A model generated the notes under the pieces. It had not been told where the DNA came from. It worked only from the letters and a program-made list of their open reading frames with translations, and ran no database searches. From positions 80,828 through 144,827 of the forward strand of contig CALRBH010000001.1 of assembly GCA_943354165.1 (NCBI GenBank): a stretch of 64,000 nt of DNA, in the 5' to 3' direction. Made by a program: the position numbers and the translations under genes. This stretch comes from Candidatus Uhrbacteria bacterium RIFOXYB12_FULL_58_10. GTDB taxonomy: Bacteria; Patescibacteriota; Patescibacteriia; UBA9934; GWF2-40-263. Positions 5,527-27,800 of this stretch are shown in pieces (positions within the stretch are counted from its first letter, which is position 1; each line of letters opens with the position of its first letter).

Positions 5527-5589
5527 AACGTGGCCGATTGTAGCAGAGGAATGGAAAAAAACAAGAGAACGGGCTACCATCCGGTGGCT

Positions 5590-6030
5590 ATGGCAGATCT
5601 AGCGTTCAACAAGCGGGCCGCATTCGATTACGACCTTCTTGAAAAACTTGAGGGCGGGTTAAAGCTGACCGGGCCGGAAGTGAAGTCGGCGAAGGCTGGG
5701 CACGTGCAATTTAAGGGGGCGTTTCTACATGTGCAGAAGGGAGAGCTGTGGCTTAAGAATCTCCACATCTCCAAATACGTTCCGGCGGGGGAGCAGCTGC
5801 TCTATAATCCAACGCGTGATCGGAAGGTGCTTGTCCACAAGCGGGATATTGCTCGGCTCACCGGAAAAACGCATGCGGACGGATTGACATTGGTGCCAAT
5901 TTCGGTGTATCTTCGCAGGAATCTCGTGAAGCTTTCCTTCGCCCTCGCGCGCGGAAAAAAGCTGTTCGAAAAGAAGGACGCGATCAAGAAACGCGATCTC
6001 GACAGGGAAGTCCGCCGCGGCGAGGCGTAG
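5590..6030 (+). CDS. smpB: SsrA-binding protein SmpB
   Basis: MADLAFNKRAAFDYDLLEKLEGGLKLTGPEVKS...; the track ORF from 5101 is an artefactual extension. Confidence 0.93.
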   Translation: MADLAFNKRAAFDYDLLEKLEGGLKLTGPEVKSAKAGHVQFKGAFLHVQKGELWLKNLHISKYVPAGEQLLYNPTRDRKVLVHKRDIARLTGKTHADGLTLVPISVYLRRNLVKLSFALARGKKLFEKKDAIKKRDLDREVRRGEA

Positions 6031-6127: not shown

Positions 6128-6528
6128 GGGGCTGATCGGCTTCGCCGGCAGCCTGTTTCCGTCTAAGCAAGCCGAGGGTGTACTGAACCTCGTAAATCCT
6201 CTGTGCAAAGAAGTCATTTGCCAACCTCTTCTCACAAGTGAAGAGCGCGATCGCTTCGGCGTTCCGCGTTCCGACACTTGCCATGGTTACCGCCTAAGGG
6301 CTTGTAACCCATCCGTCCTGCTGGTTCGTAAGCGGGGTCGCGGGTGTTATATCTACGGACTCTCCTTGATGGACTACCGGTCTTCAGCAAGGGAATTGGC
6401 GGCCGGTCCGTCTGCAGGTATTTCGTTCTGTTTGACCCTGCAGCCGCGTAAATCTAACAGAACTTCGCTTGGAGAAAGGATTGGGGACAGTTGACCAGAC
6501 GGGGGTTCGATTCCCCCCAGCTCCACCA
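6128..6528 (+). ncRNA. ssrA: tmRNA (ssrA)
   Basis: 5' GGGGCTG pairs with 3' CAGCTCC-A-CCA (G3:U70-like wobble); 3' tRNA-like T-arm GGGGGTTCGATTCCCCC; adjacent to smpB; the tag ORF cannot be delineated confidently by eye (candidate in-frame stops at 6295 and 6459). Confidence 0.88.
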
Positions 6529-6590: not shown

Positions 6591-7628
6591 ATGCCATTAC
6601 CGAAATCTCCTCTTCCGCAAACCATCACGCTTTCCACCGCCACGTTCATTAAGGCAGCGCTCGTGGTTGGCGGTATTGTCCTTGTCTGGTTCTTGCGTGA
6701 CGTGCTCGCGATCATTTTTGTCGCCCTCTTGCTCGCCGCGCTCATCGATCCGTTTGCGGACCATCTTCATTCGAAGGGGATGCCTCGCGGGCTCGGGGTC
6801 ATCATCATCTATTTATGTCTTGGAACGGTTTCGGTTCTTGGTCTGATTGTTCTTGTCCCAGTTGTCATTGAACAGTTCCTCCAGCTCGTCTCAAACCTTT
6901 CAGGAACCTATTCGGATTTTGCGAGTTCCTTCGGTCAGCTCAAGACGCTCTCGGTGAAGTACGGGTTTGAAACGAATCTTCTTTCAAGTCTTCAGTCGCT
7001 TCAGGAAGCGATCACTGGATCATTTGCTTCCATCTTCTCCACGGTACGCGGATTCTTCGGGGGGATTGCTGCTCTGTTTATCGTGCTCGTCCTCGCCTTT
7101 TACATGGTGGCGGAAGAAGACACGGCACGGAAATATTTTCAGAACATCGCTCCTCTGGAATATCAGCCGTTTCTTTCGCAGCTGTTTGCGAAGATGCAGA
7201 AGCGGATCGGTTCCTGGTTGCGCGGACAGCTCGTCCTTGGGTTGATCGTAGGGACGGCGGTGTATATCGGGTTGAGCTTGCTCGATGTAAAGTACGCGCT
7301 CCTTCTGGGTATTGTCGCCGCGATTTTCGAAGTGATCCCATATGTCGGTCCCGTCCTTTCGCTTATCCCGGCGGCGATCATTGGGTTCGCGCAGGGTCCG
7401 GTCACGGGCCTCTTGGTGGTAGGCCTCTACGTGATCATCCAACAGGTTGAGAATAACGTTCTGGTCCCGAAGATCATGCAAAAGGCGACGGGGCTGAATC
7501 CGGTCGTCAGCATCATTGCCCTTATGATCGGCATCCAGTTCGGCGGGCTGATCGGGGCCATTCTTTCCATTCCGGTCGCGACCATGATTTCCGTCGTGTT
7601 GGAAGATTTGTTTACACCAACCGCCTGA
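6591..7628 (+). CDS. AI-2E family transporter (PerM/YhhT-like, UPF0118)
   Basis: Multi-TM protein with typical C-terminal VENNVLVPKIM...GG motif region; start ATG 6591 with TATACT 9 nt upstream (the track ORF start at 6561 is a TTG). Confidence 0.75.
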   Translation: MPLPKSPLPQTITLSTATFIKAALVVGGIVLVWFLRDVLAIIFVALLLAALIDPFADHLHSKGMPRGLGVIIIYLCLGTVSVLGLIVLVPVVIEQFLQLVSNLSGTYSDFASSFGQLKTLSVKYGFETNLLSSLQSLQEAITGSFASIFSTVRGFFGGIAALFIVLVLAFYMVAEEDTARKYFQNIAPLEYQPFLSQLFAKMQKRIGSWLRGQLVLGLIVGTAVYIGLSLLDVKYALLLGIVAAIFEVIPYVGPVLSLIPAAIIGFAQGPVTGLLVVGLYVIIQQVENNVLVPKIMQKATGLNPVVSIIALMIGIQFGGLIGAILSIPVATMISVVLEDLFTPTA

Positions 7629-7632
7629 GGGT

Positions 7633-8037
7633 ATGCACAAGCATCTCCGTTCTGGATTTCTTGGTGTCATCATCGTTCTTTCCTTTGCCCTCGCGGTTTT
7701 TGTCCTGAAGGCAGGGAAGAGCGCGCCGACGGCAACCACCCCTTACCCCTCCTTGGCGAAGGAGGGGAGTCTGGCTCCGACGGATGGAGAATATCGTGCG
7801 GCCACTCATTCTATTATTGCGGAAGTGCGCGTGGCGTATCCAGCGGCTAAAACCGCCTATGATCGCGAGCAGGCTCTCACGGTCGCGTTGAACAATCTGC
7901 TCGATGTCCGCGTTCCAAGAGAGGAAAAGGATTTTCACCTGGAACTCGCGGTATCCCTTGAGCTTACGCGCTCCGGTTCTCCAGATGGCTGGAAGCGTTT
8001 TCTGGCGACGGTTGAAAAAACGGACTGGTTGAAGTAA
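7633..8037 (+). CDS. hypothetical secreted/membrane-anchored protein
   Basis: 134 aa, N-terminal hydrophobic segment GVIIVLSFALAVFVL; no recognisable domain. Confidence 0.5.
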   Translation: MHKHLRSGFLGVIIVLSFALAVFVLKAGKSAPTATTPYPSLAKEGSLAPTDGEYRAATHSIIAEVRVAYPAAKTAYDREQALTVALNNLLDVRVPREEKDFHLELAVSLELTRSGSPDGWKRFLATVEKTDWLK

Positions 8038-8059
8038 GTAGAAGGAAACACGTTCCGTT

Positions 8060-8764
8060 ATGTCACGAGTTGAAAAAAACGCTCCCGTACAAGATGAGCT
8101 GCGCGCCATGCGCGGAGAGATGCTTGAAACTGTGAAAGTGAGTGGACGCGGGGTGGGGAAGAAGACGGGTTGCGCGATCATTCTCCTTCTTGTGCTGATG
8201 GCGTTTGGTCTTTGGATCCTGGTTCTTTTCGCTCGCACAGGACTCATAACGATTCCAGGTATTTCTCCAATCGTATTTACGGCTCCGGCTCCTGACCATC
8301 AGGTTGCCCCGGGGATCCTGATGGAAGAGAGCATTTCGCAGCAGTTGTCACAGGCCTCCACTTCGACAGCTATCGCGCTGCGCATGTCCGAGGAGTCACT
8401 TACCGCCTCCGTACGCCGAGTGCTGGCGGGATCGAACGTGAATTTCATCGATGCCGAAAAGACGCAGGTCATTGTGGAGACAGACGGTATCGAGATCTTC
8501 ATTCCCGTTGAAGGGAAGGATACGGCGGTCATGGTGCGTTTGCTTCCAGAGATCGAGAACGGTGCGTTTACGCTTTCGATCCGGGGCGTCGATGTCGGGA
8601 CGCTTGCTCTGCCGGGGGTGATTGTGGACTCCATGCTGCGTCCGGCCTTCGATGCGTCGGTGGACGAATTCAATCGAGAACTTGCCAAGCACGTTCTTCT
8701 TGAACAGATCCGTCTCGAGTCAGGCTCCCTTAGTATTTCAGGAACGCGATTCATTCCGCAGTAA
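8060..8764 (+). CDS. hypothetical single-pass membrane protein
   Basis: 234 aa; TM AIILLLVLMAFGLWILVLF; tightly linked to neighbours. Confidence 0.5.
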   Translation: MSRVEKNAPVQDELRAMRGEMLETVKVSGRGVGKKTGCAIILLLVLMAFGLWILVLFARTGLITIPGISPIVFTAPAPDHQVAPGILMEESISQQLSQASTSTAIALRMSEESLTASVRRVLAGSNVNFIDAEKTQVIVETDGIEIFIPVEGKDTAVMVRLLPEIENGAFTLSIRGVDVGTLALPGVIVDSMLRPAFDASVDEFNRELAKHVLLEQIRLESGSLSISGTRFIPQ

Positions 8765-10590: not shown

Positions 10591-11232
10591 ATGTCACAGC
10601 CTTCGTACGGAGTCGTGCTTGCGAACCGATGGAAATCGCTCGCGGCGTTTACTCTCCTCGGTCTCGTTCTCTCCTTGCTGGTTTCGTTTATCCAGCCGCT
10701 CAAGTATTCCTCGACCGTTCGGCTTCTGGTACGTCAGGACATCGGTTCCTCAGATGCCTACACAGCCAGTCGGAGTGAGGAACGCATCGCGGAAAACCTT
10801 ACGAACATTCTTTATACCACCACGTTTTTTGACGATGTCTTGAACGCCGGGTTCACCATCGATGAACGGACGTTTCCGGCCGAGGATTACAAGCGACGCA
10901 AGGAATGGGGAAGGACGGTTTCCGCCACGGTGGCGCGCGGATCCGGCCTCATGACCGTCGTGGCCTATCATCCGGATGTGAAGCAGGCCGAGCAGATTGC
11001 CCGCGCCGTGGCGTTTGTCTTCACTCAGAAGGCCAAGGACTACACCAGTGCGGCCGGGGTGGACGTGCGGTTGATCGATGCGCCGTTGAATTCCAATTGG
11101 CCGGTGAAGCCTAATTTGCTCGCAAATGGTTTGTCCGGTCTGGTCCTGGGCGGTCTGTTTGGGGTGGCCTACCTGCTATTGCAGGCAGAGCGGATTCGCC
11201 GCCGCCATCAATTGGTTCACGAGGAATTTTAA
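10591..11232 (+). CDS. Wzz-like polysaccharide chain-length determinant (PCP family, short form)
   Basis: TM1 AAFTLLGLVLSLLVSF, Wzz-like N-region LKYSSTVRLLV, C-terminal TM LSGLVLGGLFGVAYLLL then RIRRR. Confidence 0.6.
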   Translation: MSQPSYGVVLANRWKSLAAFTLLGLVLSLLVSFIQPLKYSSTVRLLVRQDIGSSDAYTASRSEERIAENLTNILYTTTFFDDVLNAGFTIDERTFPAEDYKRRKEWGRTVSATVARGSGLMTVVAYHPDVKQAEQIARAVAFVFTQKAKDYTSAAGVDVRLIDAPLNSNWPVKPNLLANGLSGLVLGGLFGVAYLLLQAERIRRRHQLVHEEF

Positions 11233-11308: not shown

Positions 11309-11890
11309 ATGCAGCTGATCAATGTGTATCTAGCGATGCTGCTCGCGGCGGCTCCGGTCGCAGCGCAGTACACAGAACTCGCTCCGTTTCTTGGAGTGGG
11401 GACAAGTTTCGTCAGCGTCCCGTTTGAGACTCAGATTGGTGCGCCGGAATGGCAGACAGGTGAAAGGAGCTTTACCGGAGGTGTTACTTTTTCTACCGGA
11501 ATTGATCACACCTTTGGACGACTCGGAGTTCATCTTGATTTCGGACCGCGCGCTACGTTCTTTCCAGAAGAAGGGATGATGATGGGGGTTTTGGTCACCG
11601 GCTGCGTGGACGCGCTTTTCCGTCCGACCCACCATCTGCTGATCGGTCCATCCTTCTGTGTCGAAACCCACGAACCGCTTTGGTACGGTGGGGAAGCGCA
11701 ACGTACGATTTATGGAATGGGCGGGGTTGGGCTGGTCGTTCCGTTCCTGTTGGGCGATGAGACCGAACTGGCTCCTCACGTCTTTCTCGGTATTGCGCCC
11801 GTCTCAGGCGAAGATTCGATGCGTCTTGTTCCGTCCGTTCTGTTAGGGATAGATCTGGAGGTCTTGTTTTCACCGGCATTCCATCCGTAA
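11309..11890 (+). CDS. hypothetical secreted beta-rich protein
   Basis: Signal peptide MQLINVYLAMLLAAAPVAAQ; Gly/aromatic-rich; no recognisable domain. Confidence 0.5.
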   Translation: MQLINVYLAMLLAAAPVAAQYTELAPFLGVGTSFVSVPFETQIGAPEWQTGERSFTGGVTFSTGIDHTFGRLGVHLDFGPRATFFPEEGMMMGVLVTGCVDALFRPTHHLLIGPSFCVETHEPLWYGGEAQRTIYGMGGVGLVVPFLLGDETELAPHVFLGIAPVSGEDSMRLVPSVLLGIDLEVLFSPAFHP

Positions 11891-12103: not shown

Positions 12104-12132
12104 TTGACAAAACGGCCAGTTTCTGTTATATT
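12104..12132 (+). promoter_or_regulatory. sigma70-type promoter TTGACA-N17-TATATT
   Basis: Perfect -35 and near-consensus -10 with 17-nt spacer; the transcript would carry a ~310-nt leader to the ATG at 12446. Confidence 0.5.
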
Positions 12133-12445
12133 GCCGGGTCGATCGATCACTCAAATAGCCAATACATCACGCCAAACCGCGCGATTTCAGGCGGTTCGGC
12201 AGAGCACATAGCATCTCCTCCTTGCTATGGGCGCTGTCGGACCACTCGAGTTCACGCGGCCAGCGCGCAGACGCCCTTATCCACAGGGACCCTGCGCGCT
12301 GGTCACGTTGGACCCAATGGTCCTTACAAACGTGTCCTTACAGAGTACCAGCCGTAGGAAGAACGAGCCCAAGGCATTCCGCCAAAAAGCTCACCCTCTT
12401 CCGCGCGCTGTGCCGGAAGGAGAACAAATGCAACAGGAGAGTCCC

Positions 12446-13540
12446 ATGAAAACGAGCATCGTTTCCGTGTTCATCATCACTATGATCGGCTTCGCCTTCC
12501 CGGCCTTTGCGGACGTCTCGTCCACGGATGCCGGCGTCGCCGCGGCACCGGTCCTGTTCGATGAGATCCCCGACATGTGCCTCGCTGACTGCACGCAGGC
12601 CTATCAAACGGCCAACGACGCGTGCCTCAAGCAGTTCAACAACTGCGTGACCGAAGAGCAGGTCCGCGTGGACCCGCCCAAGGTCACTCCCGAGAAGTCC
12701 AAGAAGCCCAAGGCTCCGGAGGCCCCCAAGGCCTCGAAGCAAAAGGTGGAGAACTTCCGGGAGGCGCTCAAGGAACTCGAAAAGCGCACGGAGGACGGGT
12801 TCACCTCCAATGACGAGAAGCTCAAGAAGGTCAAAGAGACCATCAAGCTTCTCGACGATCGCGTCGGCAAGGTCGAAGACCGTGTCGGCAAGGTCGAAGA
12901 GGTCATCAAGAATCTTGTAGGTCGAGCCGACAAGGTCGGCGTCATGGGAATTATTGGGTTCGAAGCCTGCCTGGGCTCCACCCGCCAGGTGGACCTCACC
13001 GATCTGCGGCAGATCGATCAGAATGGGAATAACGTCGGCAACGACGGCACGCTCAAACTGCAAGATCCGGGCGCGGCATGCGTTCGTCCTGTGCTCGGGT
13101 TCGGTCTCCAAAACAAATACATGGTGCTGAAGATCTCGGGCAGCCCGTTTGGCGTCACCTTTGGCTCCGCGCAGGCGTCCAATGGAGATCCCTCGCAGGT
13201 CATCGGCTACGCTCCCAGCGTCGCCGGCGAGTTCCTGGGCTTCGTGACTCCCGACCTCGCGCTTGGAGTGTACGGCCAGTACATGTTCAACAAGGTTGGT
13301 GCACTGCCCAGTGGGAAAGCCTCGCTGGACGCGCAGACCTTCACAGGCGGCCTCGCGGCGGACTGGACCTTCCTGCGATTCGGATCGACGGCGCTCGCGC
13401 TCTCGGCTCGCGTCGGCGGCGGGTACGGTCATCTGTCGACTCGGCTCCCGACCGGCAAGGACAAGTGGTGGCCCGCGCTCGCGCTCGACGGCCAAGCCGG
13501 TGTGACCATGCGGTTCAACCCCTTCCAGGCCGCGGAATGA
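12446..13540 (+). CDS. hypothetical secreted protein: signal peptide, 4-Cys segment, Lys/Pro linker, coiled coil, C-terminal beta-rich domain
   Basis: Start at ATG 12446 behind an AGGAGA RBS (the track ORF 12227 is a GC-driven extension); MKTSIVSVFIITMIGFAFPAFA signal peptide; DRVGKVEDRVGKVEEV heptads. Confidence 0.6.
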   Translation: MKTSIVSVFIITMIGFAFPAFADVSSTDAGVAAAPVLFDEIPDMCLADCTQAYQTANDACLKQFNNCVTEEQVRVDPPKVTPEKSKKPKAPEAPKASKQKVENFREALKELEKRTEDGFTSNDEKLKKVKETIKLLDDRVGKVEDRVGKVEEVIKNLVGRADKVGVMGIIGFEACLGSTRQVDLTDLRQIDQNGNNVGNDGTLKLQDPGAACVRPVLGFGLQNKYMVLKISGSPFGVTFGSAQASNGDPSQVIGYAPSVAGEFLGFVTPDLALGVYGQYMFNKVGALPSGKASLDAQTFTGGLAADWTFLRFGSTALALSARVGGGYGHLSTRLPTGKDKWWPALALDGQAGVTMRFNPFQAAE

Positions 13541-13731
13541 AGTAGGACACGACTACGGTGTGGGGAGGGAGCAGGATTTAATCCTGTCTCTCTCCCCACA
13601 TTCTCTCTCTAAAGCCAGATACGTATGCGGACGAATTTTTCGCCCGCAGACGACCCCGGCTTTCCCGCCTCGTAGGAGGCAAGCCATCCGCCTCTCAAGA
13701 GGCTTGTCAGCAACCCCAGCAGGAGACAGAC

Positions 13732-14760
13732 ATGAACAACGTCAGCAAGTTCCTTTTCATCGCGGCCCTCGTGGCCATCACCTTCAACACGGTCGGCTGC
13801 GAGCCGGCCCAGGCGTCTGGCGCAAACGTCGTCGTGGACGGCGCCGCTGAATGCGAGAACAACGTCGATTGCACTGGCGATGAGGTCTGCACCGACGCAA
13901 CGTGCGTCGATCCCGACACCATCGAGTGCCGTCTCAACAGCGACTGCAACGACGACGACAAGGTCTGCACCGACGCGAAGTGCGTCGACAAGGACCCCCC
14001 GTCCAACGTCGGCTGCACGAACAACGACGGCTGCGAGTTCGACGAGGTGTGCACCAACGGCACCTGCGAAGAGCTCGATTGTGAAGTTGACGAGTGCGCG
14101 GCGGACCACGAGTGCGTGGACCTCCCGCCGGTCAGCGACTGCACGCTCAACAGCGCGTGCGGCGACGCCCAGCAGTGCACCAACGGCCAGTGCGTCAACA
14201 CGTCTTGTCCCTCGGGTCAGCACGCGGTGAACCACAATGAGTGCGTGAACGACACGCCCTCCGGCCAATGCACGCTGAACTCGCAATGCAGCAACGGCCA
14301 GGTGTGCACGAACGGTCAGTGCGTCGGCGGCAACCCGGTCAATCCCGGACCCACGCGCACGGAGCGGTTGTGCCAGAACGCCCCCTCGGGCAAGACGGTG
14401 AACGGTGACCTTACGGGTCGTTCGTTCGCCACCGACGGTGTCACGCTCTTGCAGAGCTCGTTCGCGAACGTCGCAGTGAATGCGGCGCGAACGCAGATCT
14501 GCGGTGACATCACGGTCCAGACCGGCGGGTTCCTTGAACACAACGTCACGTTCATCCCCACCGGCTTCACGGGATACGTGGCGTTCAACCAGAACTCGCA
14601 GAGCTGCCAGATCACGGCGGGTGCGTCATCGGCTCTCGGTGCGCGCTCCTTGTCCCCGGTCGCGATCCCGTGGCACTGTTCCGGACTGGGCTCGTGCAGC
14701 AACGCTGTGCCCGCAAGCAACGAAGGTTGCGATGCGCGCAGCAGCGTCCCGGCTCCTTAG
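13732..14760 (+). CDS. secreted Cys-rich repeat protein (C-x-D/N-x-D-C-T-N-G-x-C modules), possible lipoprotein
   Basis: Signal peptide ending ...NTVGC; >40 Cys in short D/N-rich repeats (CTDATCVD, CTNGQCV); AGGAGA RBS. Confidence 0.65.
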   Translation: MNNVSKFLFIAALVAITFNTVGCEPAQASGANVVVDGAAECENNVDCTGDEVCTDATCVDPDTIECRLNSDCNDDDKVCTDAKCVDKDPPSNVGCTNNDGCEFDEVCTNGTCEELDCEVDECAADHECVDLPPVSDCTLNSACGDAQQCTNGQCVNTSCPSGQHAVNHNECVNDTPSGQCTLNSQCSNGQVCTNGQCVGGNPVNPGPTRTERLCQNAPSGKTVNGDLTGRSFATDGVTLLQSSFANVAVNAARTQICGDITVQTGGFLEHNVTFIPTGFTGYVAFNQNSQSCQITAGASSALGARSLSPVAIPWHCSGLGSCSNAVPASNEGCDARSSVPAP

Positions 14761-14776
14761 CTGGAAGTACGATACT

Positions 14777-14816
14777 AACCCCCATCACATCTGTGAGTGG
14801 GGGTTTCGTCTTTTCT
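14777..14816 (+). terminator. rho-independent terminator
   Basis: AACCCCCA-tcacatctgtgag-TGGGGGTT followed by TCGTCTTTTCT. Confidence 0.65.
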
Positions 14817-14832
14817 GGAGCCGCATGTTCGA

Positions 14833-14861
14833 TTGACAAAAGTCCTTTTTCTTGGTAGAAA
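14833..14861 (+). promoter_or_regulatory. promoter TTGACA-N17-TAGAAA upstream of 14982 gene
   Basis: Same architecture and hexamers as 15784..15812. Confidence 0.45.
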
Positions 14862-14981
14862 AGAACGTTAGTATTTCACTAAGGATCGCGCGCTGATGTG
14901 GGTAGGGAATCCACACCAGGTCACGATCTTTAAACCCATACTTGTATCCTGCCGATCTGGGGCAGGGTACGGAGGTGATCC

Positions 14982-15758
14982 ATGCCGCGTTGGTTAAAAG
15001 CCTTGTTGCTGTCGTGTGTTCCGTTTGCCAAGTCCTGCAGCCTGCTCCTGCCCGCGACCGGATGCTCGCTCTGTGCCGTAGCATCCCAATGCTATGACGA
15101 CGTCGATTGCTCTCCGGGATCTGTGTGCGAGGAGGGGGCCTGTATTTCGAGCGGGACTACCATCGACGAGCCCGATGCCGGACCTGATCCTGGTGAAGGT
15201 GAAGGCGAGGGAGAGGGCGAAGGCGAGGGTGAAGGAGAGGGAGAAGGAGAAGGTGAGGGTGAAGGAGAACCTGATGAGGATGGGGATGGAAATCCCAATT
15301 CTACGGACCCTGCGGTGTTGCGTGATACGAATGCCAACACCAGACCAGATACTCTGTGTATCCTTTCGAGCCAGGTGATGCCGGAGCCGTGGGCAAATGA
15401 TGACGTGTTCCTTCAAATCCAGGGAGGCAGCTTCAATGATTTCGACACCATGACGCTTGGTGCAGAGATCCAAATTGAGCAGTTTGGCCCTGGACTTGGT
15501 TGGTGTCCGGACCTGAGTGGGTTCCCAGATGGAGATTATTTTATCCGGTTCGTGGCTGTTGAGGGGATCGATCAGACTTCTCTGCAGAGCGGATATGTGT
15601 GTTCCAGGGCTGTCATCAGCGACTTTGATGCGGCCTGTACTGGGGCAAATCCCGACCTTCTTTGCGGGTTCCTCTCGCGACAGGATAACTGCGGTGGATT
15701 CGTGGGAAATCTTATTCACGTAACCGTCACTGCAGCCTTTGGGGTGGAACCTGGCTAG
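14982..15758 (+). CDS. secreted protein with N-terminal Cys cluster and (Gly-Glu)16 acidic linker
   Basis: Signal peptide MPRWLKALLLSCVPFA; GEGEGEGEGEGE... stretch; C-terminal 6-Cys domain. Confidence 0.6.
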   Translation: MPRWLKALLLSCVPFAKSCSLLLPATGCSLCAVASQCYDDVDCSPGSVCEEGACISSGTTIDEPDAGPDPGEGEGEGEGEGEGEGEGEGEGEGEGEPDEDGDGNPNSTDPAVLRDTNANTRPDTLCILSSQVMPEPWANDDVFLQIQGGSFNDFDTMTLGAEIQIEQFGPGLGWCPDLSGFPDGDYFIRFVAVEGIDQTSLQSGYVCSRAVISDFDAACTGANPDLLCGFLSRQDNCGGFVGNLIHVTVTAAFGVEPG

Positions 15759-15783
15759 ACAGCACGTTTCTCTAAGCGAGCCT

Positions 15784-15812
15784 TGACAATATCGGTAAAA
15801 TCCGGTAGAAAT
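15784..15812 (+). promoter_or_regulatory. promoter TTGACA-N17-TAGAAA upstream of 15979 gene
   Basis: Identical hexamers and spacing to 14833..14861. Confidence 0.45.
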
Positions 15813-15978
15813 CAAGGTCCGTATTTTTCTTTATACCGTCCAATTTCGTGCTTTGTCTTCGGCATAGGAGGGTCGTGGACTGGGACATGAAACTTTCACA
15901 AGCGTGCTCGTACACGCATCCCCGTCCGCTACCAGTAGCGAGGAGACCAACCATGAAGCAGAGAAAGAGGAGGAGACC

Positions 15979-18330
15979 ATGAGAAGTTTGTTTTTGCTGG
16001 TTTTGTTTGCCATGATGCCCGCCTGCGTCGGCTGCGACGACGGGGATGGCATTCCCACCGAGGACGACTGCGATCCGGAGACGTCGGGTGACAATCAGGT
16101 CATCTCACTCTGCGGATGTCCGGACAACCCTGCCAGCCCTCCGGGCTGTGCGGATAATTCGGGCGAAGGCGAAGGTGAGGGCGACGGTGAAGAAGGCGAA
16201 GGCGAAGGTGAGCCGCTGCAGGAGTGTGTGCTCAACACCGAATGCGACGACGGCGAAGAGTGCACCGATGGAGAGTGCATCCAGATTCCTGTGGAGCCAG
16301 TGTGTACGCCCGGCGAACGCCGGGTATGCAATACGGGTCTCGACGGCGTCTGCATCTTCGGCAGCCAGCGATGCAAGGAGGATGGATCGGACTTCGACAC
16401 ATGCGAAGTCGAGACGTCTCCTGGCGAGCTCGATGAAGTCTGTTTTGATGGCATCGACCAGGACTGCGACGGTCGCATCGACAATGGATGCGCCTGTCCG
16501 GCTGGAGAAGAAGCTGACTGTGTCCTCCCTGCGCTCGACGGCGAATGTCGCCGCGGACGTATGGTGTGCCTACCGGACGGCTCCGAGTTCGGCGAGTGCG
16601 AGCAGGTCACCTTCTTTCAAGAAGAGATCTGCTTAAACGGGTTTGATGAGACGTGCGATGGCACAGCCGACGAAAACTGCGTGTGCTTCCCTGGGCAAAC
16701 CCAGCCGTGCAATTCAGGGTTTGAAGGCGTGTGTGCCGCGGGCGTCCAAACGTGTTTGCCGGATGGTCTGGGGTTTGACTCCTGCCAACCGCTGATCGCG
16801 CCGTTTACGGAACCTGAGACTTGCGAGAACGGGGTCGATGAGGACTGCGACGGTCGTCCGGATTCCGGATGTACCTGTTCGCCTGATGAACGGGCCCTCT
16901 GTGTCGTAGTGAGCGAGGTCGGACCGTGTTCTGTTGGAGAGGCAGTATGTCTTCCCGACGGAAACGGCTTCGGCGCCTGCGTCCAGACGGTACTGCCCGC
17001 CGCAACGGATTCCTGCTTCAACCTGCGGGATGACGACTGCGACGGCACGGTGAACAACGGCTGCGCGTGTGAGGCAGGAACCAGCATCGTCTGCGACACA
17101 GCCCTCGAAGGGATCTGTGCCTCGGGCCTGCAAACCTGTCTTGCGGACGGCTCCGGGTTCGACATCTGTCGTCCCGTGATCCTTCCGTTCGCACAAGCTG
17201 ATACCTGTGGCAACGGCGTCGACGAGGACTGCGACGGGCTCCCGGACAACGGGTGCACCTGCGATCCCGGTGATCAAGTCGACTGCGTTGTGACGGGGCT
17301 CGAGGGCGCATGCAAGATCGGGAAGGCGACCTGTCCTTCTGACGGCAACGCGTTCGGTGCCTGTACACAGACGGTCTTCCCGGCGGCGCAGGATACCTGC
17401 ATCAATGGGATCGACGACGACTGCGATGCGGCGACGGATGAAACGTGCGTCTGCCAGCCGTTCACGTCCCGTCCTTGCGCCACTGGCTTGCCAGGGGTCT
17501 GCAATGGCGGAAGCGAAACGTGCCGCGCCGACGGAACTGGATTCAACGTGTGTCAGGTGCTCATCATTCCCGGAACCCAGGCGGAAACCTGTGGCAACGG
17601 GCTGGATGATAACTGCAACACGGCGGTTGATGACGGGTGCGTAGTGGGTGCGGGCGTCCCTGGGACGCTGGCCTTTGATGACGATGGTGACTGCGAGTGT
17701 GAGATCGTCGCAGGCATCTGCTCGGGGTCTATCAACCCCGTGTGCACGGCGGTTACGGCAGATGACTGCGATGACGCTGCGAGAGTCAAAAGCTCGCTCG
17801 CCAACGAAGTCTGCGGTGGTACGGAGGACTTCGACTGCGATGGCTCGATCGGTGCCGCCGATCCGGACAGCGTGGCGCAGTGTGTAGGAACAATCAGCGT
17901 GAGTTTCGCGGCAGGGAACTTCACAGCCGTGATGAACGGCAATGTGACGGGAACAACCTTGAGCGAGATGACGACAGGCGCGGCTACGCTTCTTGGAAAC
18001 GTTCTGTTCCTTGAAGTCGGTGCCAACTCCGCCGGCTGCAGCTTTGATGCGACGAGTTCGTGTGGGCAAGTGGCCTTCGATCCCCTCACGGATAACTTCG
18101 TCAACAAGGCTCTGGTGTTCGCTGGAGCGATCGGTATTCCGACAGACTTCACTCCGCGGGTGCAGACGAACCAGACGGTGGTGACTCCAGGTACAGGAGT
18201 CGTGGTGCCTGAAGGAGCGTTCATTGATCTCGCCCGTTGGGGGGTGATCAATGGAGCAGGAGGCAAAACCTGTGCCGTATTGCCCGGTGGTCCACTGGGT
18301 GCGGCTCTGACCACACACTGCACGCCGTAG
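15979..18330 (+). CDS. secreted/lipoprotein with seven ~64-aa 8-Cys tandem repeats of the C-x-N-G-x-D-(D/E)-D-C-D-G-x-x-D-x-G-C type (MopE/putative metal-binding-motif-like), (GE)n linkers and a C-terminal Cys-poor domain
   Basis: Start ATG 15979 behind GAGGAGGAG; MRSLFLLVLFAMMPACVGC lipobox-like; repeats e.g. ETCENGVDEDCDGRPDSGCTC x7. Confidence 0.7.
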   Translation: MRSLFLLVLFAMMPACVGCDDGDGIPTEDDCDPETSGDNQVISLCGCPDNPASPPGCADNSGEGEGEGDGEEGEGEGEPLQECVLNTECDDGEECTDGECIQIPVEPVCTPGERRVCNTGLDGVCIFGSQRCKEDGSDFDTCEVETSPGELDEVCFDGIDQDCDGRIDNGCACPAGEEADCVLPALDGECRRGRMVCLPDGSEFGECEQVTFFQEEICLNGFDETCDGTADENCVCFPGQTQPCNSGFEGVCAAGVQTCLPDGLGFDSCQPLIAPFTEPETCENGVDEDCDGRPDSGCTCSPDERALCVVVSEVGPCSVGEAVCLPDGNGFGACVQTVLPAATDSCFNLRDDDCDGTVNNGCACEAGTSIVCDTALEGICASGLQTCLADGSGFDICRPVILPFAQADTCGNGVDEDCDGLPDNGCTCDPGDQVDCVVTGLEGACKIGKATCPSDGNAFGACTQTVFPAAQDTCINGIDDDCDAATDETCVCQPFTSRPCATGLPGVCNGGSETCRADGTGFNVCQVLIIPGTQAETCGNGLDDNCNTAVDDGCVVGAGVPGTLAFDDDGDCECEIVAGICSGSINPVCTAVTADDCDDAARVKSSLANEVCGGTEDFDCDGSIGAADPDSVAQCVGTISVSFAAGNFTAVMNGNVTGTTLSEMTTGAATLLGNVLFLEVGANSAGCSFDATSSCGQVAFDPLTDNFVNKALVFAGAIGIPTDFTPRVQTNQTVVTPGTGVVVPEGAFIDLARWGVINGAGGKTCAVLPGGPLGAALTTHCTP

Positions 18331-18363: not shown

Positions 18364-18416
18364 GCCGGCGGCCGCGATCTCCTCTCTGAGGAATCGCGAC
18401 CGTCGGTCTTTTATTT
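18364..18416 (+). terminator. rho-independent terminator after the Cys-rich gene
   Basis: GCCGGCGGCCGCGAT...ATCGCGACCGTCGGTC hairpin then TTTTATTT. Confidence 0.6.
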
Positions 18417-18424
18417 GGTACACT

Positions 18425-19975
18425 ATGAGCGTTATGTTGGACCTGCAGGCGATGTATGGCCTTACGGAGGAGCGGTCAAAGGGATTGATGGTGGTGCTCG
18501 CCATCTCGTTTGTTGTTCTCATCGGCTCCATGTCGTTTCTTTCGCCGGTAGCGGTGGTGGCCGGGGTGATTGGCGTTCTGCTGCTCGCTCTCACGATTGT
18601 GCGACCGCTCTGGACGCTGAGCCTACTCGCCCTCTACCTTCCGTTCGAGCCGTTTCTGCTCAAGTTTGCGCCGGACGAAGTGTATACGTTTGCCCGGTTC
18701 GGTTCCGAAGGACTCATCTATATTCTTGGGGGGCTCGTGATCGCGCGTATCCTCATGGGGCGTACGTCGAACGTTCAGACGCCTATCAGTCTTCCGTTCG
18801 TCCTGTTCTGCGTTGTTCTCGGCGCGTCCGCGCTTATCAATGCCGTGCCTCCGAGCATCGCCGTACTCGGCATCAGACAGATCATCAGGTTCATCCTGGT
18901 ATTCTTTATCGTCGTACAGCTCGCGCCGTCCAAGTCTTACATTTCAAAACTGACGATCGCACTGTTTGGGATTGCGGCGTTCGAAAGTTTGCTGGCGTTC
19001 GCCCAGCTCGTCATTGGTGCGCCGCTCGACACATTCCTCCTGCCGTCGGACACGCGCGCGATCGGCGACGTTGCCGTTACGGCCGGGACGACCCAGTTCT
19101 GGGACCCGGGCTCGCGCACGTTCGGGACGCTCGGTCGGTATGATCGGCTCGGAAACTTTCTGTTCATGATGCTGTTGTTCGGCGTCGGCTTCCTCACGCA
19201 GCAGGGGAAGCGCGCGATCTCTTTGTCCCGTAATCAACTTCTTTGGCTGTTCGCCCTCGGGTTACCTGCGCTCCTCATGACGTTCTCGCGCGCATCTTGG
19301 TTCGCCTTTCTCTTCGGCTTCCTTTTCATCATGGTGGTGCTGCTGCGCGATAAACGCGTGATGGCGGCGTTCGGGATTTGTGGGGTCCTTGCGGGAGCGT
19401 ACGTGGGATTGTCCGGGCTTAATGTACGGTTCATTACGGAAGCGCCGGGGCAGACCCTCATCGAGCGGTTTTACGAAACGTTCAGCTATGCGCGATGGCG
19501 CGGGGAATATTACGGACTCGGCCGCGTGTTTTGGTTCGTGCAAACCGTGTCAGTTGTCGTCCCCGCTGCGCCGATCTTTGGCTGGGGGCCTGGGCAGTAC
19601 GGGGCAGGGGCCGCGACCACGCTCGTGAATACGCGCGTGTATGACGCGCTCGGCTTGCCGTTCGGGGTCTATGGAACCGATGGGTATATCGATAACAACT
19701 GGTTCTCCTTATGGGGGGAAGCCGGAACGCTCGGACTCGCGTTTTTCCTCTGGATGTACATCGGACTATTTGTGTACGTATGGCGAGGATATCGCCGGAG
19801 TTCCGATGGGTTCACACGCGGGTTGTGCGCGGGGTATCTCGCCCTGCAAATCGGCGTCGCGTTCGCGGCGTTCCTTGCGACATCGTTCGAGACAAGAACG
19901 GTCGGGTACTACTTGTGGATGTATGCCGGGTTCCTCGTGGTGCTGCTTGAGCGTGAACGTCGTACGCCCGTATGA
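18425..19975 (+). CDS. O-antigen ligase / Wzy-type polymerase family membrane protein
   Basis: ~12 TM helices, large periplasmic loop containing the TFSRASW signature of the Wzy_C/O-antigen ligase family. Confidence 0.72.
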   Translation: MSVMLDLQAMYGLTEERSKGLMVVLAISFVVLIGSMSFLSPVAVVAGVIGVLLLALTIVRPLWTLSLLALYLPFEPFLLKFAPDEVYTFARFGSEGLIYILGGLVIARILMGRTSNVQTPISLPFVLFCVVLGASALINAVPPSIAVLGIRQIIRFILVFFIVVQLAPSKSYISKLTIALFGIAAFESLLAFAQLVIGAPLDTFLLPSDTRAIGDVAVTAGTTQFWDPGSRTFGTLGRYDRLGNFLFMMLLFGVGFLTQQGKRAISLSRNQLLWLFALGLPALLMTFSRASWFAFLFGFLFIMVVLLRDKRVMAAFGICGVLAGAYVGLSGLNVRFITEAPGQTLIERFYETFSYARWRGEYYGLGRVFWFVQTVSVVVPAAPIFGWGPGQYGAGAATTLVNTRVYDALGLPFGVYGTDGYIDNNWFSLWGEAGTLGLAFFLWMYIGLFVYVWRGYRRSSDGFTRGLCAGYLALQIGVAFAAFLATSFETRTVGYYLWMYAGFLVVLLERERRTPV

Positions 19976-23003: not shown

Positions 23004-23546
23004 GTGTCGAAGCAACTAGATCAATTCCTTATTTCTCGGATCCGGGCGTTCCGCGACGAAAGCGCGTTCGAACGGATCATGGCAGATCATCATAAAGCTT
23101 TGCTTCGATTCCTTGAGTTTCGTCTGCCCTCTAAAGCCGATGCAGATGATGCCCTTTCCATCACCATGTTACGGACGTGGAACTATCTCACATCCGGGAC
23201 GCATGTAGAGCACTTGCCAGGACTCATTTATACCATTGCGCGTTCTGTGGTTGCAGAGTTCTACCGCTCGCGTCGATCAACGGTGTCTACTGATCTCTTG
23301 GAAGAAAGCGGAGTGATCATTCCGGATACGCAGCACACAAAGGGTGCCATGGAGGCACGAGTGGATGTTCAGTTCCTCGAAGAGAAGCTCAAAGAGCTTT
23401 CCGAAGAAGATCGAGATCTGATCGTGATGAAACACTTCGAACAATTGAGCACTCAAGAAATTGCGGACCGACTAGAAAAATCTGTAACAGCCACAAGCGT
23501 TGCCCTCCACCGCGCGTTAAAGAAACTCAGGGGGCTTATCGAATAG
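23004..23546 (+). CDS. ECF-type RNA polymerase sigma-70 family factor
   Basis: Region 2 (DDALSITMLRTWNYL...) and region 4 HTH (LSTQEIADRLEKSVTATSVALHRALKKLR). Confidence 0.8.
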   Translation: MSKQLDQFLISRIRAFRDESAFERIMADHHKALLRFLEFRLPSKADADDALSITMLRTWNYLTSGTHVEHLPGLIYTIARSVVAEFYRSRRSTVSTDLLEESGVIIPDTQHTKGAMEARVDVQFLEEKLKELSEEDRDLIVMKHFEQLSTQEIADRLEKSVTATSVALHRALKKLRGLIE

Positions 23547-23550
23547 AGAT

Positions 23551-24693
23551 ATGACGGAGCGCGAACTCATTAAACTTTTGAACAAAGCAAAAGACCTCCC
23601 CCAATTTGGCGGAGGGTTTGATGCATCTGTTGAGACACCAAAAATGTGGGCGCGGATTGCCGGAGAACTCGGTTTTGATCCTGTCATGAAACACCGCGTC
23701 TACACCTGGCAGGAGTGGGCGCAATTTTACGTTCATAAATTCGGCGGCATGTTCCGCCACTCGTTCGCTTACGGACTTTCCGTATTCGCCCTCATGTTCG
23801 GCGGATGGGTTGCCACTGTTAACGCTTCGTTTGATTCCGTGCCAGGCGACACGCTTTATCCGGTGAAGCTCGCTACGGAGAAAATGCAGATCACGCTCGC
23901 AACGTCCACGGAGCGCCGCGCTAAGCTCCACACGGAGTTTGCTGGACGGCGCCTGCAGGAAGTGAACGAGATTTCCGTGTCCGATCGCGGCGACAAGGAC
24001 GCACGCATTAAGGAAGCCGTCGCCTCCTTTAAGACGGAGCTCGCCTCCGCTGGAGACCAGCTCGCGGTTCTCACGGATGGAAATTCAACAGAGGTGGCTG
24101 CTGTTGCCGCCGCCATTGAACAGAAAACAAACGAGTACGCTTCCACGCTCACCCAGGCTGAACTCGGAGATAACTCCAAGGATGATGTGGACTCTGCAAA
24201 GGAAGATGTAGAACGTACGGATGCCCAGGCCATCGATGCTCTCGTCGTCGTTCATGAGTCGGATACAGCTGAACCTTCGCGCGAGGCGCTTGAACGCTCC
24301 TTCCGTCAGGACTTCCAGAGTGTAAAGGACCGCTTGTCCCTCTCGCTCGGCCGGCTCTCCACGGTAGAACGCGTGCTTACCAACCTCGGTCGGATCGAAG
24401 CCTCGGAATACCGCGGACGCATCAACAAGGCCAGGGAAGTGATTGTGGGTCACGATCGCACTCTGGGCGGGTCTCAAGACTACGCTGCCGCCGGCGGATA
24501 TCGCCGCGCGTTTGACCTCCTGCGGATCGTCTCAACGGACGTGAAAGTTTCCGAAGAAATTATTGCCGCGTTGGAAATCGAGATTACGACGTCGGTTGCG
24601 ACGCAGGAGGAAGTAGCTGATGCCACGGACGGCAACCCCACCTCACCTCCCCTTGGCGAAGGGGAGGAACGAGTTCAACCCGCATCGTTTTAA
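23551..24693 (+). CDS. DUF5667-like membrane-anchored protein, putative anti-sigma factor
   Basis: Immediately follows the ECF sigma gene; short cytoplasmic N-terminus, one TM (LSVFALMFGGWVATV), extracytoplasmic helical domain. Confidence 0.5.
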   Translation: MTERELIKLLNKAKDLPQFGGGFDASVETPKMWARIAGELGFDPVMKHRVYTWQEWAQFYVHKFGGMFRHSFAYGLSVFALMFGGWVATVNASFDSVPGDTLYPVKLATEKMQITLATSTERRAKLHTEFAGRRLQEVNEISVSDRGDKDARIKEAVASFKTELASAGDQLAVLTDGNSTEVAAVAAAIEQKTNEYASTLTQAELGDNSKDDVDSAKEDVERTDAQAIDALVVVHESDTAEPSREALERSFRQDFQSVKDRLSLSLGRLSTVERVLTNLGRIEASEYRGRINKAREVIVGHDRTLGGSQDYAAAGGYRRAFDLLRIVSTDVKVSEEIIAALEIEITTSVATQEEVADATDGNPTSPPLGEGEERVQPASF

Positions 24694-24897
24694 AAACTGC
24701 ATCGGGCCCCGTGCTTATCTCCTCACGTGAGTAGGGAGATGAGCTCGGGGAAATCACCCGATAGCCCCGCAGCTAGTTGATGCAACGCAAGGTCGACCAC
24801 GTGTAAAAAACGTGGATGCATCAGCCTCCCGAGATCCGGGTTACCGGATCCGGCACTACAAAGGTTCACCTGGCTTACGCCAGGTATCTACTAAGCT
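24694..24897 (+). promoter_or_regulatory. long structured 5' leader of the giant surface-protein gene
   Basis: Multiple hairpins (CATCTCC...GGGAGATG; CACGTG-taaaaaa-CGTGG; CCGGATCCGG; CCTGGC-ttac-GCCAGG) within ~200 nt before the ATG. Confidence 0.45.
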
Positions 24898-27800
24898 ATG
24901 ACTGATTCTTTGCGAATCGGAAAGCGCGCTCTCACTGTGGCCGTTGCCGCCGTGACCATTCTTTGGTCCGTTGGCTTCTCCGCATTTGTGGCTCCGATGA
25001 CTGCTTCGGCAGCATCGTCTGGTGACGTTATTCGCGGCACCACGCTTTCCACCCTTTACTACCTCGCTTCAAACGGACAGCGCTACGCATTCCCTAACGA
25101 AAAGACTTACAAGTCTTGGTACGCAGACTTCTCGGGCGTTCAGACTCTTTCTGATTCCGCTCTTGCTGCGATCCCACTCGCTGGGAACATTGTGTACCGC
25201 CCAGGAGCTCGCTGGATTAAAATCCAGTCTGATCCTAAGACCTACGCCGTGACTCCACAGGGTCAGATCCGCTGGATCGAAACTGAGGCAGTTGCTGTCG
25301 GTCTTGCCGGTGCTAACTGGAACACATTCATCGATGACGTTTCGGATGTGTTCTTCGTTGACTACTCGGTAGGCGCTTCTCTCGCTTCGGCTGCCAACGG
25401 TTATTCTGGCATGCTCGTTGAAGAGGCTGGCAAGAACTGGCTTCTTTCGAGCAACCAGAAGCGTGAGGTTACCTCCGCTGGTTTCTCGGGCAACCGTTTC
25501 CAGACGCGCCATGTCCTCTCCGGTGACGGTGTAAACCTCGCTGGGATGACTGTGGGTGCTATGGTCACGGGTGCAGAAGCAGGTCTTACGGACACCGCAC
25601 AGCTCGGTGCAGCAGTGACAGGTGGTCTTTCCATCTCGCTCGCTTCTGACACCCCAGCTTCGACGACGGTTCCAGGCGGCGCTGACTCCGTTGAGTTCAC
25701 CAAGTTCAAGCTTGTTGCAAACTCCGGTTCAGCAACCATCAACCAGATCGTTGTGAGCCTCGGCGGCGTTGGGGCGACCAGCAACATCGACAACGTGTAC
25801 CTCTACAAGGGGAGCACACGTCTTACCGATGGTCGCTCGGTCAACTCGACTACGCGCAAGGCGACCTTCACAGGTCTCAACATCGCTCTCGCTGCCGGTG
25901 ACATCGTGTACCTCTCGGTACGCGCTGATACCAACGCAGCCGCAGGCGGTGGCGACACAGCTAACTTCTCCATCGCTGCTTCCGGCGATGTGACTGGCAC
26001 TGCTACGGTCTCTGGGAACTTCCCAATTTCTGGGAACACCATGAGTTTCTCCGATCAGAACGCCGGTACCATCACGGTAAGCAAGAACGCCACCATCACC
26101 GACCCAACGGTTGGCCAGGAGAATGCCGTGATTGGTAAGTTTAAAGTTGAAGCCGCTACGGAAGACGCTTCGCTTAAGCAGATTACCCTCAACATCGATG
26201 ATGCTGGCGACCACTCCAACTTCAAACTTTGGAAGGGTTCCACGCAGCTCGCTACGGGGACATCTGACGGCGAACTCGTCACCTTCGTGCTCACTAACCC
26301 ACTGCTCGTAGCAGAGGGCGACTCCGAAAACCTTCAGGTTTCGGCTGACATCGGTGGCGAGAAGGACGACGACATCAAAGTCGCGATTGAAGCTGAAGCA
26401 GACGTCGTTGCCATCGGTGGCGATTTCGGCTTCAACATGTCCACTGTCATCACTCTTTACGATGACGAAGGCGGCGCTTGTGTGGACGGAACAACAACTG
26501 GCTGTTCGTTCTCAGAAGTCCTTGGTGGTGAACTTACGTTCGCTTTCAACGGTCCAGCTGCAGACGACATTCAGATCGACGGCGATGACGTTGTGCTCTT
26601 GAAGTTCTCCATCACTTCGGAAGAAGCGGTTGAGATCAAGACGCTGAAGGTCACCGTCGCATGTTCCACTGGTGCGGAATGTGATAACGACAACAACGAC
26701 GAAGGCGGTCTCATTAACGACGTAACTGGCGCAGACAGCCCAGATACGCTCAATCTTGAGAACATCACTATTCGTAAGTCCGACGGTTCCGCTTGGATGG
26801 GTCCTGAGGAGCTCTCAGCCGCTGGCTCTGACGCAACTCAGACTCTTTCCTTCACGGACAACCAGAACATGACGGCCGGGCAGACGCTCGACCTTATGGT
26901 CACTGCAGACGTCGACAACGTTGATGGTCTCAGCGATGACAAGTACCGCGCTACATTGGAGCTTGGTACCGCTGGTGATGTTGAGGCAGAGGATGCAAAT
27001 GGCGACGATCTCGCCCTCGGCGACATCGTTCCAGGTACTGATCTCGTAGGAAACGAGATGACTGCAACCAACTCCTCCCTCTCGGTGCAGGTTTCGACTC
27101 CACCATCCTCTGGTACCTTCGTTAAGGGCCTCCAGAACGTGGCTGTGCTCGGCCTTGCCTTTGAGGCTGGGGATGCATCTGACGTAAAGGTCACCGACCT
27201 TGTGCTCAATGCTGATCTCGACACCACTGTCGGCGGCGGCGTTACCAGCACGGACTTGGTCCGCGATTCTGTGAACTCCTGCTCGCTTTACGACAGCCAG
27301 TCTGGAGCCCTTATTGCTGGCCCAGAGTCCTTCGACGCCGCTAATGAAGAAGCTTCGTTCGACAACTTCTCCTGGACCGTATCGGCCGGAGAAACCGAAA
27401 AGATGATCGTGAAGTGTAACTTCGCGAACGTTGATTCCAACGATGCTGACGATGATGAATACAACTTCTTCATCGACACCATTGGTACTGACATCACCGC
27501 AGAAGATACAGACGGCGATGACGTTGATCCAACAGCAGGTGCTGCTGGCCTCAACGAAGCCGTAGAAACAGTGGTCATCACGATCACGAACGCAGGCACC
27601 TTGATCATTAGTCTCGACGGTTCCACCGCTGCTTCGAACATCATCCTTGGTGCTTCGACCGGTGTGGCCATGTCGAAGTTTAAGTTCGAGGCAGGGGACG
27701 AGTCCTTCCTCGTGAAGGAACTTACCCTGGACAACTGTGTCACGCTCGTTGCAGACGCCGATGGCGACTGTGCAGACGGCGGTGAAGCCCTTGGTGCTGA

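Follow-up and report, generated by a model that had tools for sequence, protein, structure and literature searches.

Large Cys-rich extracellular proteins are already known from the Candidate Phyla Radiation (CPR), where those of the Peribacteria are weakly similar to Myxococcus repeats and have been proposed to function in attachment (Anantharaman et al. 2016, PMC4736985). Proteins of the Pfam family PF11617 (Cu-binding_MopE) are likewise common. In MopE itself, Cu(I) is bound within a beta-rich domain by His132, His203 and kynurenine-130 (PMC3423442), and CorA has an analogous copper site made of two His and a kynurenine (PMC3912023). Of MopE, the PF11617 model reaches just a short Asp-rich segment, and it 'lacks specificity' (PMC6189053). 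An Asp-rich N-terminal stretch of MopE*, invisible in crystals, has been linked to Cu(II) binding that is weak, in the micromolar range (PMC3423442). The linear motif Dx[DN]xDG is found to bind Ca2+ in numerous folds unrelated to one another, where the ion usually stabilises the structure (PMC3123361). Here we describe an island of three consecutive genes for Cys-rich proteins (genes 1-3, encoding proteins 1-3) in a 64,000-nucleotide stretch of contig CALRBH010000001.1 (assembly GCA_943354165.1), hereafter the window. To what is known, this locus adds the anatomy of the repeat unit, a putative lipoprotein and acidic-spacer architecture, a conserved place beside Wzy_C in several CPR lineages, and a unit for which sequence searches of the PDB return no matching solved structure. 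On balance we lean towards reading the trio as stalks or adhesins on the cell surface, anchored by lipid, made stiff by disulfides and Ca2+ and expressed from their own sigma-70-type promoters.

The three open reading frames (ORFs) lie one after another on the + strand (Table 1) and are rich in Cys and in Asp/Asn, as the original prediction had stated from the DNA letters. Cys makes up 9.4, 5.4 and 10.0% of proteins 1, 2 and 3, against 0-1.6% in 27 other gene products of the window; Asp plus Asn account for 17.0, 12.8 and 14.9%, and the net charges are -30, -38 and -114, respectively. A 4-Cys module of the form C-x4-5-C-x5-6-C-x4-C is common to all three, occurring at least five times in protein 1 and once each in proteins 2 and 3. 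The long Gly-Glu spacers that had been predicted for two of the proteins are present in proteins 2 and 3, as (GE)13 in the former and GEGEGEGDGEEGEGEGE in the latter, and the hexamer arrays that encode them are the sole repeats found at the DNA level by Tandem Repeats Finder. These arrays are imperfect GAAGGN hexamers (12.5 copies at 15192-15269 and 8.3 at 16162-16212), and in-frame hexamer slippage could open spacer length to variation between strains. A recent DNA duplication of genes 2 and 3 together with their promoters was considered and rejected, as similarity is confined to the GE-coding hexamers and the promoter hexamers. The same sequence appears in the Logan assembly of SRR7054680, broken across genes 2 and 3 (~14806-17975): one contig (L084) stops 46 nt past gene 1 and another (L081) begins within the C-terminal domain of gene 3, a break that fits difficulty from the (GE)n hexamers or strain heterogeneity. 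The gene 2 product was also missing from the protein collection searched.

Protein 3 carries the repeat units. The signature C-x-[ND]-[GL]-x-D-x-x-C-[DN]-x-x-x-[DN]-x-x-C matches it seven times with a period of 63-64 residues (at aa 155, 218, 282, 346, 410, 474 and 538), which bears out the claim of seven units of about 64 residues with 8 Cys each and a MopE-type signature. Mutual identity among these units is 32-59%, with odd and even units alternating (R3/R5 59%, R4/R6 50%), suggesting that two-unit blocks were duplicated. Each unit consists of a beta-hairpin part followed by the PF11617 motif. The hidden Markov model check that had been proposed places protein 3 in PF11617 at 89.4 bits (cut-off 27, E 1.6e-25, 6 stretches); the other model named alongside it, TIGR02232, gave no match at E <= 0.1. 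Homologues of protein 3 numbered 632 at E <= 0.001 among 8,000 candidates scored, and they match it over the entire 64-aa unit, beyond the motif alone. Those with names are nearly all from Myxococcota and are titled 'MopE-related' or 'putative metal-binding motif-containing' protein. We also observed tblastn relatives of the MopE-repeat protein in two metagenome-assembled genomes of Aenigmatarchaeota (L023 and L071; E 3e-17 and 2e-9), which belong to the DPANN archaea, another small-genome, presumably symbiotic group.

Modelling of a repeat had been suggested and was carried out for units 3-4, where AlphaFold2 reached a mean predicted local distance difference test score (pLDDT) of 87.5. The model, which carries no ions, has one beta-hairpin per unit and loops otherwise, as expected for modules that are stabilised by disulfides and ions. 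A fold search of the PDB with this two-unit model gave no match. By sequence, proteins 1 and 3 returned only chance-level matches against all PDB chains, and a profile of the 24-residue motif returned none, even at E <= 10. A search of BFVD with the same model found two uncharacterised proteins of Edafosvirus, a giant virus (E 3.6e-5 and 1e-4; 27% and 21% identity).

Protein 1 matches Pfam DUF7107 (PF23416) in 2 stretches at 30.6 bits (cut-off 24.6); the EB, Dumpy and Dickkopf models of Pfam scored under their cut-offs on it, and TIGR04201, which touched protein 1 only, reached 16.7 bits against a cut-off of 25. A search of 5.8 billion proteins returned protein 1 itself only. For the C-terminal part of protein 2, an exhaustive search gave a single marginal relative (P0242, E 5.7e-4), which is an acidic lipoprotein with an Asp-rich spacer and MopE-type motifs.

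The proteins had been described as secreted by signal peptides, and N-terminal signals are indeed present in all three: a K/R-containing start and a hydrophobic core (Kyte-Doolittle 2.2-3.2) are followed by TVGC in protein 1, ATGC in protein 2 and MPAC or CVGC in protein 3. Under the relaxed lipobox pattern that we applied, these N-termini look like lipoprotein signals rather than signals for plain secretion. Lipobox-like N-termini were also found in most myxobacterial homologues examined, in P0242 and in all island proteins of two related loci (L025 and L044, see below), and lipoprotein anchoring would thus appear to be a family trait.

The island recurs at an equivalent position in related genomes. 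In the window it sits exactly between a Wzz-type gene and a Wzy_C-family gene, within an envelope-glycan locus of ~40 kb that also holds six GT4/GT2 genes, epimerases, dehydratases, a nucleotidyl transferase, a methyltransferase and a CDP-alcohol phosphatidyltransferase. Protein 3 has its two nearest relatives (45% and 39% identity) in L082 and L083, each encoded directly upstream of genes for Wzy_C, GT4, GT4 and an FG-GAP protein. The order in L025 (CAZCMI010000001.1, 47229-69388) is Wzz, a p0-like signal-peptide coiled-coil protein (p0 being the neighbour upstream of gene 1), a 220-aa Cys-containing lipoprotein, a 1062-aa MopE-repeat lipoprotein with an acidic spacer, Wzy, GT4 (52 and 64% identity), DUF5667 and a 1280-aa protein (48%). 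L025 is labelled 'uncultured Gammaproteobacteria' despite sharing the gene order of the Uhrbacteria-like window, and it is probably a mislabelled bin. In a Falkowbacteria locus (L044), Cys-rich acidic lipoproteins of 274 and 480 aa, one of the small ones having the same 4-Cys module as protein 1, precede a 1446-aa MopE-repeat lipoprotein, a Wzy-like gene, a methyltransferase and GT4 genes. A layout shared by the window, L025 and L044 is conserved in several CPR lineages, and in five loci (these three, L082 and L083) the large MopE-repeat gene lies directly upstream of Wzy_C and GT4. Between relatives, island proteins are ~30% identical or not detectably related, while the flanking enzymes are 52-64% identical, a pattern typical of exposed, fast-evolving surface proteins. 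Judged by gene order and identity, then, the island is a conserved but fast-evolving one within a Wzz/Wzy-type envelope-glycan locus.

The window's pyruvate kinase has its best named relatives in Candidatus Uhrbacteria and other Patescibacteria (56-61% identity), by which the host is a CPR bacterium, Uhrbacteria-like and with a small genome, in agreement with what had been assumed of it. That such proteins would be unusual in a small-genome organism is true insofar as the family is mostly myxobacterial; it does not hold for the module, which is conserved in position in other CPR genomes and has similar proteins reported in the CPR (PMC4736985).

Each gene of the trio was predicted to have its own terminator, and a stable hairpin with a U-rich tract indeed follows p0 and each of genes 1-3 (z -2.8 to -5.4). 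This argues against a single operon, and the three genes appear to be transcribed separately. TTGACA-N17-TAGAAA stands ahead of each of genes 2 and 3. The string was to be looked for elsewhere, and over the 64 kb it has exactly 2 matches (14833 and 15783) against 0.01 expected, both of them intergenic. The description of these promoters as near-identical, 'cloned' copies was overstated. By our own count the two strings agree at 17/29 positions only (TTGACAA, GGTAGAAA and two spacer bases), so what they share is essentially the consensus -35 hexamer plus GGTAGAAA, and the remainder of the two intergenic regions does not align. At equivalent places in L025 we find TTGACAA-...-CCGGTATAGT before the small lipoprotein gene and TTGACG-N17-TAGAAA before the large MopE-repeat gene, and in L044 TTGACAA-...-TGCTATAAT; the second hexamers that go with TTGACAA in these relatives are TATAGT or TATAAT. 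The second hexamer TAGAAA is thus conserved for the large gene in the window and L025. Because generic promoters stand at equivalent places in relatives, we take the elements for strong sigma-70-type promoters that are ordinary in the lineage; they do not speak for a dedicated regulator, and the suggested co-regulation through cloned promoters finds no support in them. The long 5' leaders matched no Rfam family at gathering thresholds.

From these observations we propose the following arrangement. Each gene would be transcribed by itself, from a sigma-70-type promoter to an intrinsic-terminator-like hairpin. Each precursor would be exported, and lipid modification of the Cys that ends the signal peptide would hold the protein on the outside of the cytoplasmic membrane, where the strongly acidic, flexible (GE)n spacer could raise the folded part off the membrane. 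Disulfide-knotted modules, of the 4-Cys type and, for protein 3, seven to eight of the 64-aa units, would then form an extended stalk in which the Dx[DN]xDG-type Asp loop of each 64-aa unit may bind Ca2+ as a structural ion. Any metal binding would stiffen the protein and not serve metal acquisition. At the far end, the lineage-specific C-terminal domain may do the binding, whether to a host cell, to some other surface or to the glycan layer of the cell itself. Support for such surface stalks comes from the PF11617 match, the repeat anatomy with its Dx[DN]xDG motifs, the unit model, the lipobox-like N-termini and the negative charge, and equally from the recurring gene order, the fast divergence of the island, its glycan surroundings, the promoters and hairpins and the Peribacteria precedent. 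An extracellular, adhesion-type role had been among the original proposals, and it still fits best.

Several points weigh against this proposal. The lipoboxes are non-canonical at -3/-2 (T-V-G-C, A-T-G-C, M-P-A-C), and among the window ORFs scanned there was no Lgt or LspA gene and no disulfide-forming enzyme. TAGAAA does not have the conserved final T of the sigma-70 consensus, and the region upstream of gene 1 has no recognisable promoter. The supposed 'binding' C-terminal domains are orphans without a predictable fold: that of protein 3 had no relatives among the sequences retrieved and gave an unusable single-sequence AlphaFold2 model (pLDDT 36.8), and the C-terminal domains of proteins 1-3 and of P0002-P0004 show no detectable mutual relationship.

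Which metal, if any, the repeats would hold bears on two other explanations. The motif cores DEDCDG, DDDCDG, DQDCDG and DFDCDG follow the Dx[DN]xDG pattern exactly; protein 3 has five exact occurrences against 0.18 expected, a number reached by 0/2000 shuffles, and protein 2 has one directly after its GE spacer. We infer that structural Ca2+ is the best-supported metal role. The original prediction had considered copper capture, and extracellular copper acquisition or sequestration as in methanotroph MopE/CorA would agree with the Pfam name Cu-binding_MopE, with the strong PF11617 score and with the weak micromolar Cu(II) binding in which the Asp-rich stretch of MopE* is implicated (PMC3423442). 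PF11617, however, 'lacks specificity' (PMC6189053) and is not the Cu(I) site; high affinity resides in the two His and kynurenine of the beta-rich domain (PMC3423442, PMC3912023), and protein 3 has a single His and a single Trp in 783 aa, neither of them in the repeats. A phmmer search of all PDB chains with protein 3 found no MopE or CorA match at E <= 1, and the window ORFs include no copper enzymes or copper-homeostasis genes. With so few candidate ligands and no similarity to the MopE/CorA fold, copper capture becomes extremely improbable. The proteins might otherwise buffer divalent cations in bulk or nucleate mineral at the surface, with the (GE)n spacers and Asp loops acting as a sponge for Ca2+, Mg2+ or Fe. 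The strongly negative net charges and repeated Asp loops would suit such a role, as would the recurrence of acidic spacers in the island proteins of L025 and L044. Against it, the spacers span only 17-26 residues, and an architectural protein is suggested by the ordered, confidently folded 8-Cys modules and by the distinct C-terminal domains. Rapid change in the distal domains is also easier to reconcile with recognition or exposure than with simple ion storage. We consider a cation sponge unlikely.

The genomic setting raises further alternatives. Proteins 1-3 may be partners of the adjacent glycan machinery, either glycosylated by the Wzy_C enzyme and glycosyltransferases or scaffolding their product, to give a glycoprotein coat. 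The Wzy_C family includes protein O-oligosaccharyltransferases (PglL, PilO), O-antigen ligases and polymerases, which speaks for this partnership, as does the position of the large MopE-repeat gene in the five loci. Separate transcription units with terminators between them speak against it, family-level searches (Pfam, NCBIfam) point to no particular Wzy_C activity, and adjacency may reflect just a shared envelope theme; we regard such a partnership as doubtful, though with rather more chance than a cation sponge, and it can coexist with stalks or adhesins. The overwhelmingly myxococcal membership of the family could also mean that these are recently transferred myxobacterial genes with no conserved role in the lineage. 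In favour of transfer, gene 1 has no homologue, and p0 and gene 1 have G+C contents at third codon positions (GC3) of 0.81 and 0.85 against 0.52-0.73 for 27 other genes, which could reflect either a foreign source or codon bias tied to expression. Genes 2 and 3 are normal in this respect (0.68 for the large gene), however, and the best relatives (45% and 39%) as well as a 30% relative lie in CPR-type loci with the same gene neighbours. Falkowbacteria show the three-gene layout again, and the trio has intact ORFs, with ribosome-binding sites, promoters and terminators present; recent transfer is thus very unlikely. Returning to the lipid-anchored stalks or adhesins, we would tentatively extend them, as a possibility still well short of probable, to a widespread and rapidly diversifying CPR module for host attachment or cell coat, in which Ca2+-stabilised stalks of the 64-aa fold bear lineage-specific tips and work with, or are glycosylated by, Wzy_C/GT4. 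If so, Parcubacteria-type episymbionts would have a defined adhesin system other than type IV pili.

Table 1. Features of the island and its immediate flanks (window positions; residues in aa).
Feature	Position	Strand	Remarks
Wzz-type chain-length determinant gene, left flank	10591-11232	+	Pfam Wzz, GNVR; TIGR01006 weak; 64% identical in L025
p0, upstream neighbour	12443-13540	+	Signal peptide, coiled coil, Gly/aromatic-rich C-terminal part
Terminator-like hairpin after p0	13557-13602	+	-39.1 kcal/mol, z -5.4
Gene 1	13732-14760	+	342 aa ORF; lipoprotein-like signal aa 1-23 (TVGC); 4-Cys modules aa 41-197; orphan C-terminal part aa 198-342
Terminator-like hairpin and U-rich tract after gene 1	14769-14822	+	ACCCCCA...TGGGGGT
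Gene 2 promoter-like site	14833-14861	+	TTGACA-N17-TAGAAA; TGG directly before second hexamer
Gene 2	14982-15758	+	258 aa ORF; lipoprotein-like signal, ATGC aa 25-28; one 4-Cys module aa 37-54; (GE)13 aa 71-96 (nt 15192-15269); DEDGDG loop aa 98-103; orphan C-terminal domain aa 110-258
Hairpin and U-tract after gene 2	15776-15822	+	-25.7 kcal/mol, z -3.3; encloses gene 3 promoter
Gene 3 promoter-like site	15783-15811	+	TTGACA-N17-TAGAAA
Gene 3	15979-18330	+	783 aa, large MopE-repeat putative lipoprotein; counted from ATG following GGAGGAG
Gene 3, (GE)n-type acidic spacer	16162-16212	+	aa 62-78
Gene 3, single 4-Cys module	16225-16278	+	aa 83-100; same type as in genes 1 and 2
Gene 3, seven 63-64-aa units	16303-17643	+	aa 109-555, 8 Cys each
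Gene 3, degenerate eighth unit	17644-17883	+	aa 556-635, 8 Cys, DFDCDG
Gene 3, orphan C-terminal domain	17884-18327	+	aa 636-783 (148 aa), 4 Cys
Terminator-like hairpin and UCUUUUAUUU after gene 3	18364-18417	+	
Wzy_C-family membrane protein gene, right flank	18425-19975	+	Pfam; 61% identical in L025; GT4 genes follow at 19972 and 21273

Other features of the window concern the surroundings of the island. Just upstream of it are two signal-peptide proteins (11309-11890 and p0) with no Pfam or NCBIfam match. The p0 gene has its own promoter at 12104 (TTGACA-17-TATATT), and the C-terminal part of its product ends in aromatic residues in a manner reminiscent of outer-membrane beta-barrels, an odd feature in a CPR bacterium; L025 has a protein of like architecture at the same place (region ~7250-8637). 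Further downstream, 23004-28740 encodes an ECF-type (extracytoplasmic function) sigma factor, a DUF5667 protein that is possibly an anti-sigma-like partner, and a 1280-aa protein with no Pfam domain, the last two being conserved in L025. The window also encodes pyruvate kinase, tRNA-Asp, IF3, SmpB, tmRNA and an HtrA-like protease. The tmRNA (105 bits) is directly downstream of SmpB (6128-6528 and 5101-6030, respectively), and the SmpB ORF as listed has ~165 extra N-terminal residues, its true start probably being internal.

How uncultivated CPR bacteria build their surfaces and attach to hosts is largely obscure beyond type IV pili. The locus offers concrete, conserved candidates in the form of three abundant-looking, putative surface lipoproteins with defined promoters and, in several CPR lineages, a fixed place by glycan polymerase genes. 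It also cautions against reading the Pfam label 'Cu-binding_MopE' as copper binding, the motif being a loop of the Dx[DN]xDG type. Solving a single 64-aa unit would annotate hundreds of detected homologues, mostly myxobacterial, plus those of the CPR.

Compared with the systems described so far, protein 3 is like MopE and CorA of methanotrophs in its predicted surface association, theirs being secreted or surface-associated, and in the short Asp-rich motif that gives PF11617 its name. MopE and CorA also hold a structural Ca2+ (PMC3912023, PMC3423442), which would be a further likeness. Protein 3 differs from both in having neither homology to the Cu(I)-binding beta-rich domain nor the His/His/Trp ligand set. 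The repeats presumably also resemble thrombospondin type 3 repeats, a likeness tested through Pfam. Those repeats and Dx[DN]xDG loops share with the units described here D-x-D-x-D-G-x-x-D stretches interleaved with Cys, a tandem arrangement and an extracellular location, which for the units is predicted (PMC3123361). Against this, the island proteins had no match to Pfam TSP_3 or LDL-receptor-A at E <= 0.1, and no PDB structural match was found. The PF11617 'MopE-related' lipoproteins of Myxococcota have the same 64-aa unit, C-x-P-G...C...G-x-C followed by E-x-C-x-[ND]-G-x-D-x-D-C-D-G-x-x-D-x-G-C, with many units per protein and lipoprotein-type N-termini. The island departs from them in its CPR host, (GE)n spacers, orphan C-terminal domain and fixed place between Wzz and Wzy, and the PKD, lamin-tail and SdrD-B domains that are common in the myxobacterial proteins are all missing from protein 3. 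The Cys-rich proteins of the Peribacteria have in common with the trio a CPR host, signal peptides, at least 7% Cys, weak similarity to Myxococcus Cys-rich repeat proteins, strain variability, a proposed attachment role and a genome investment in surface glycans. They belong to another CPR lineage and form a 14-gene cluster averaging 1655 aa, whereas the island described here is a trio of 258-783 aa for which the repeat type, the lipoprotein-like signals and a conserved gene order with Wzz/Wzy are now defined.

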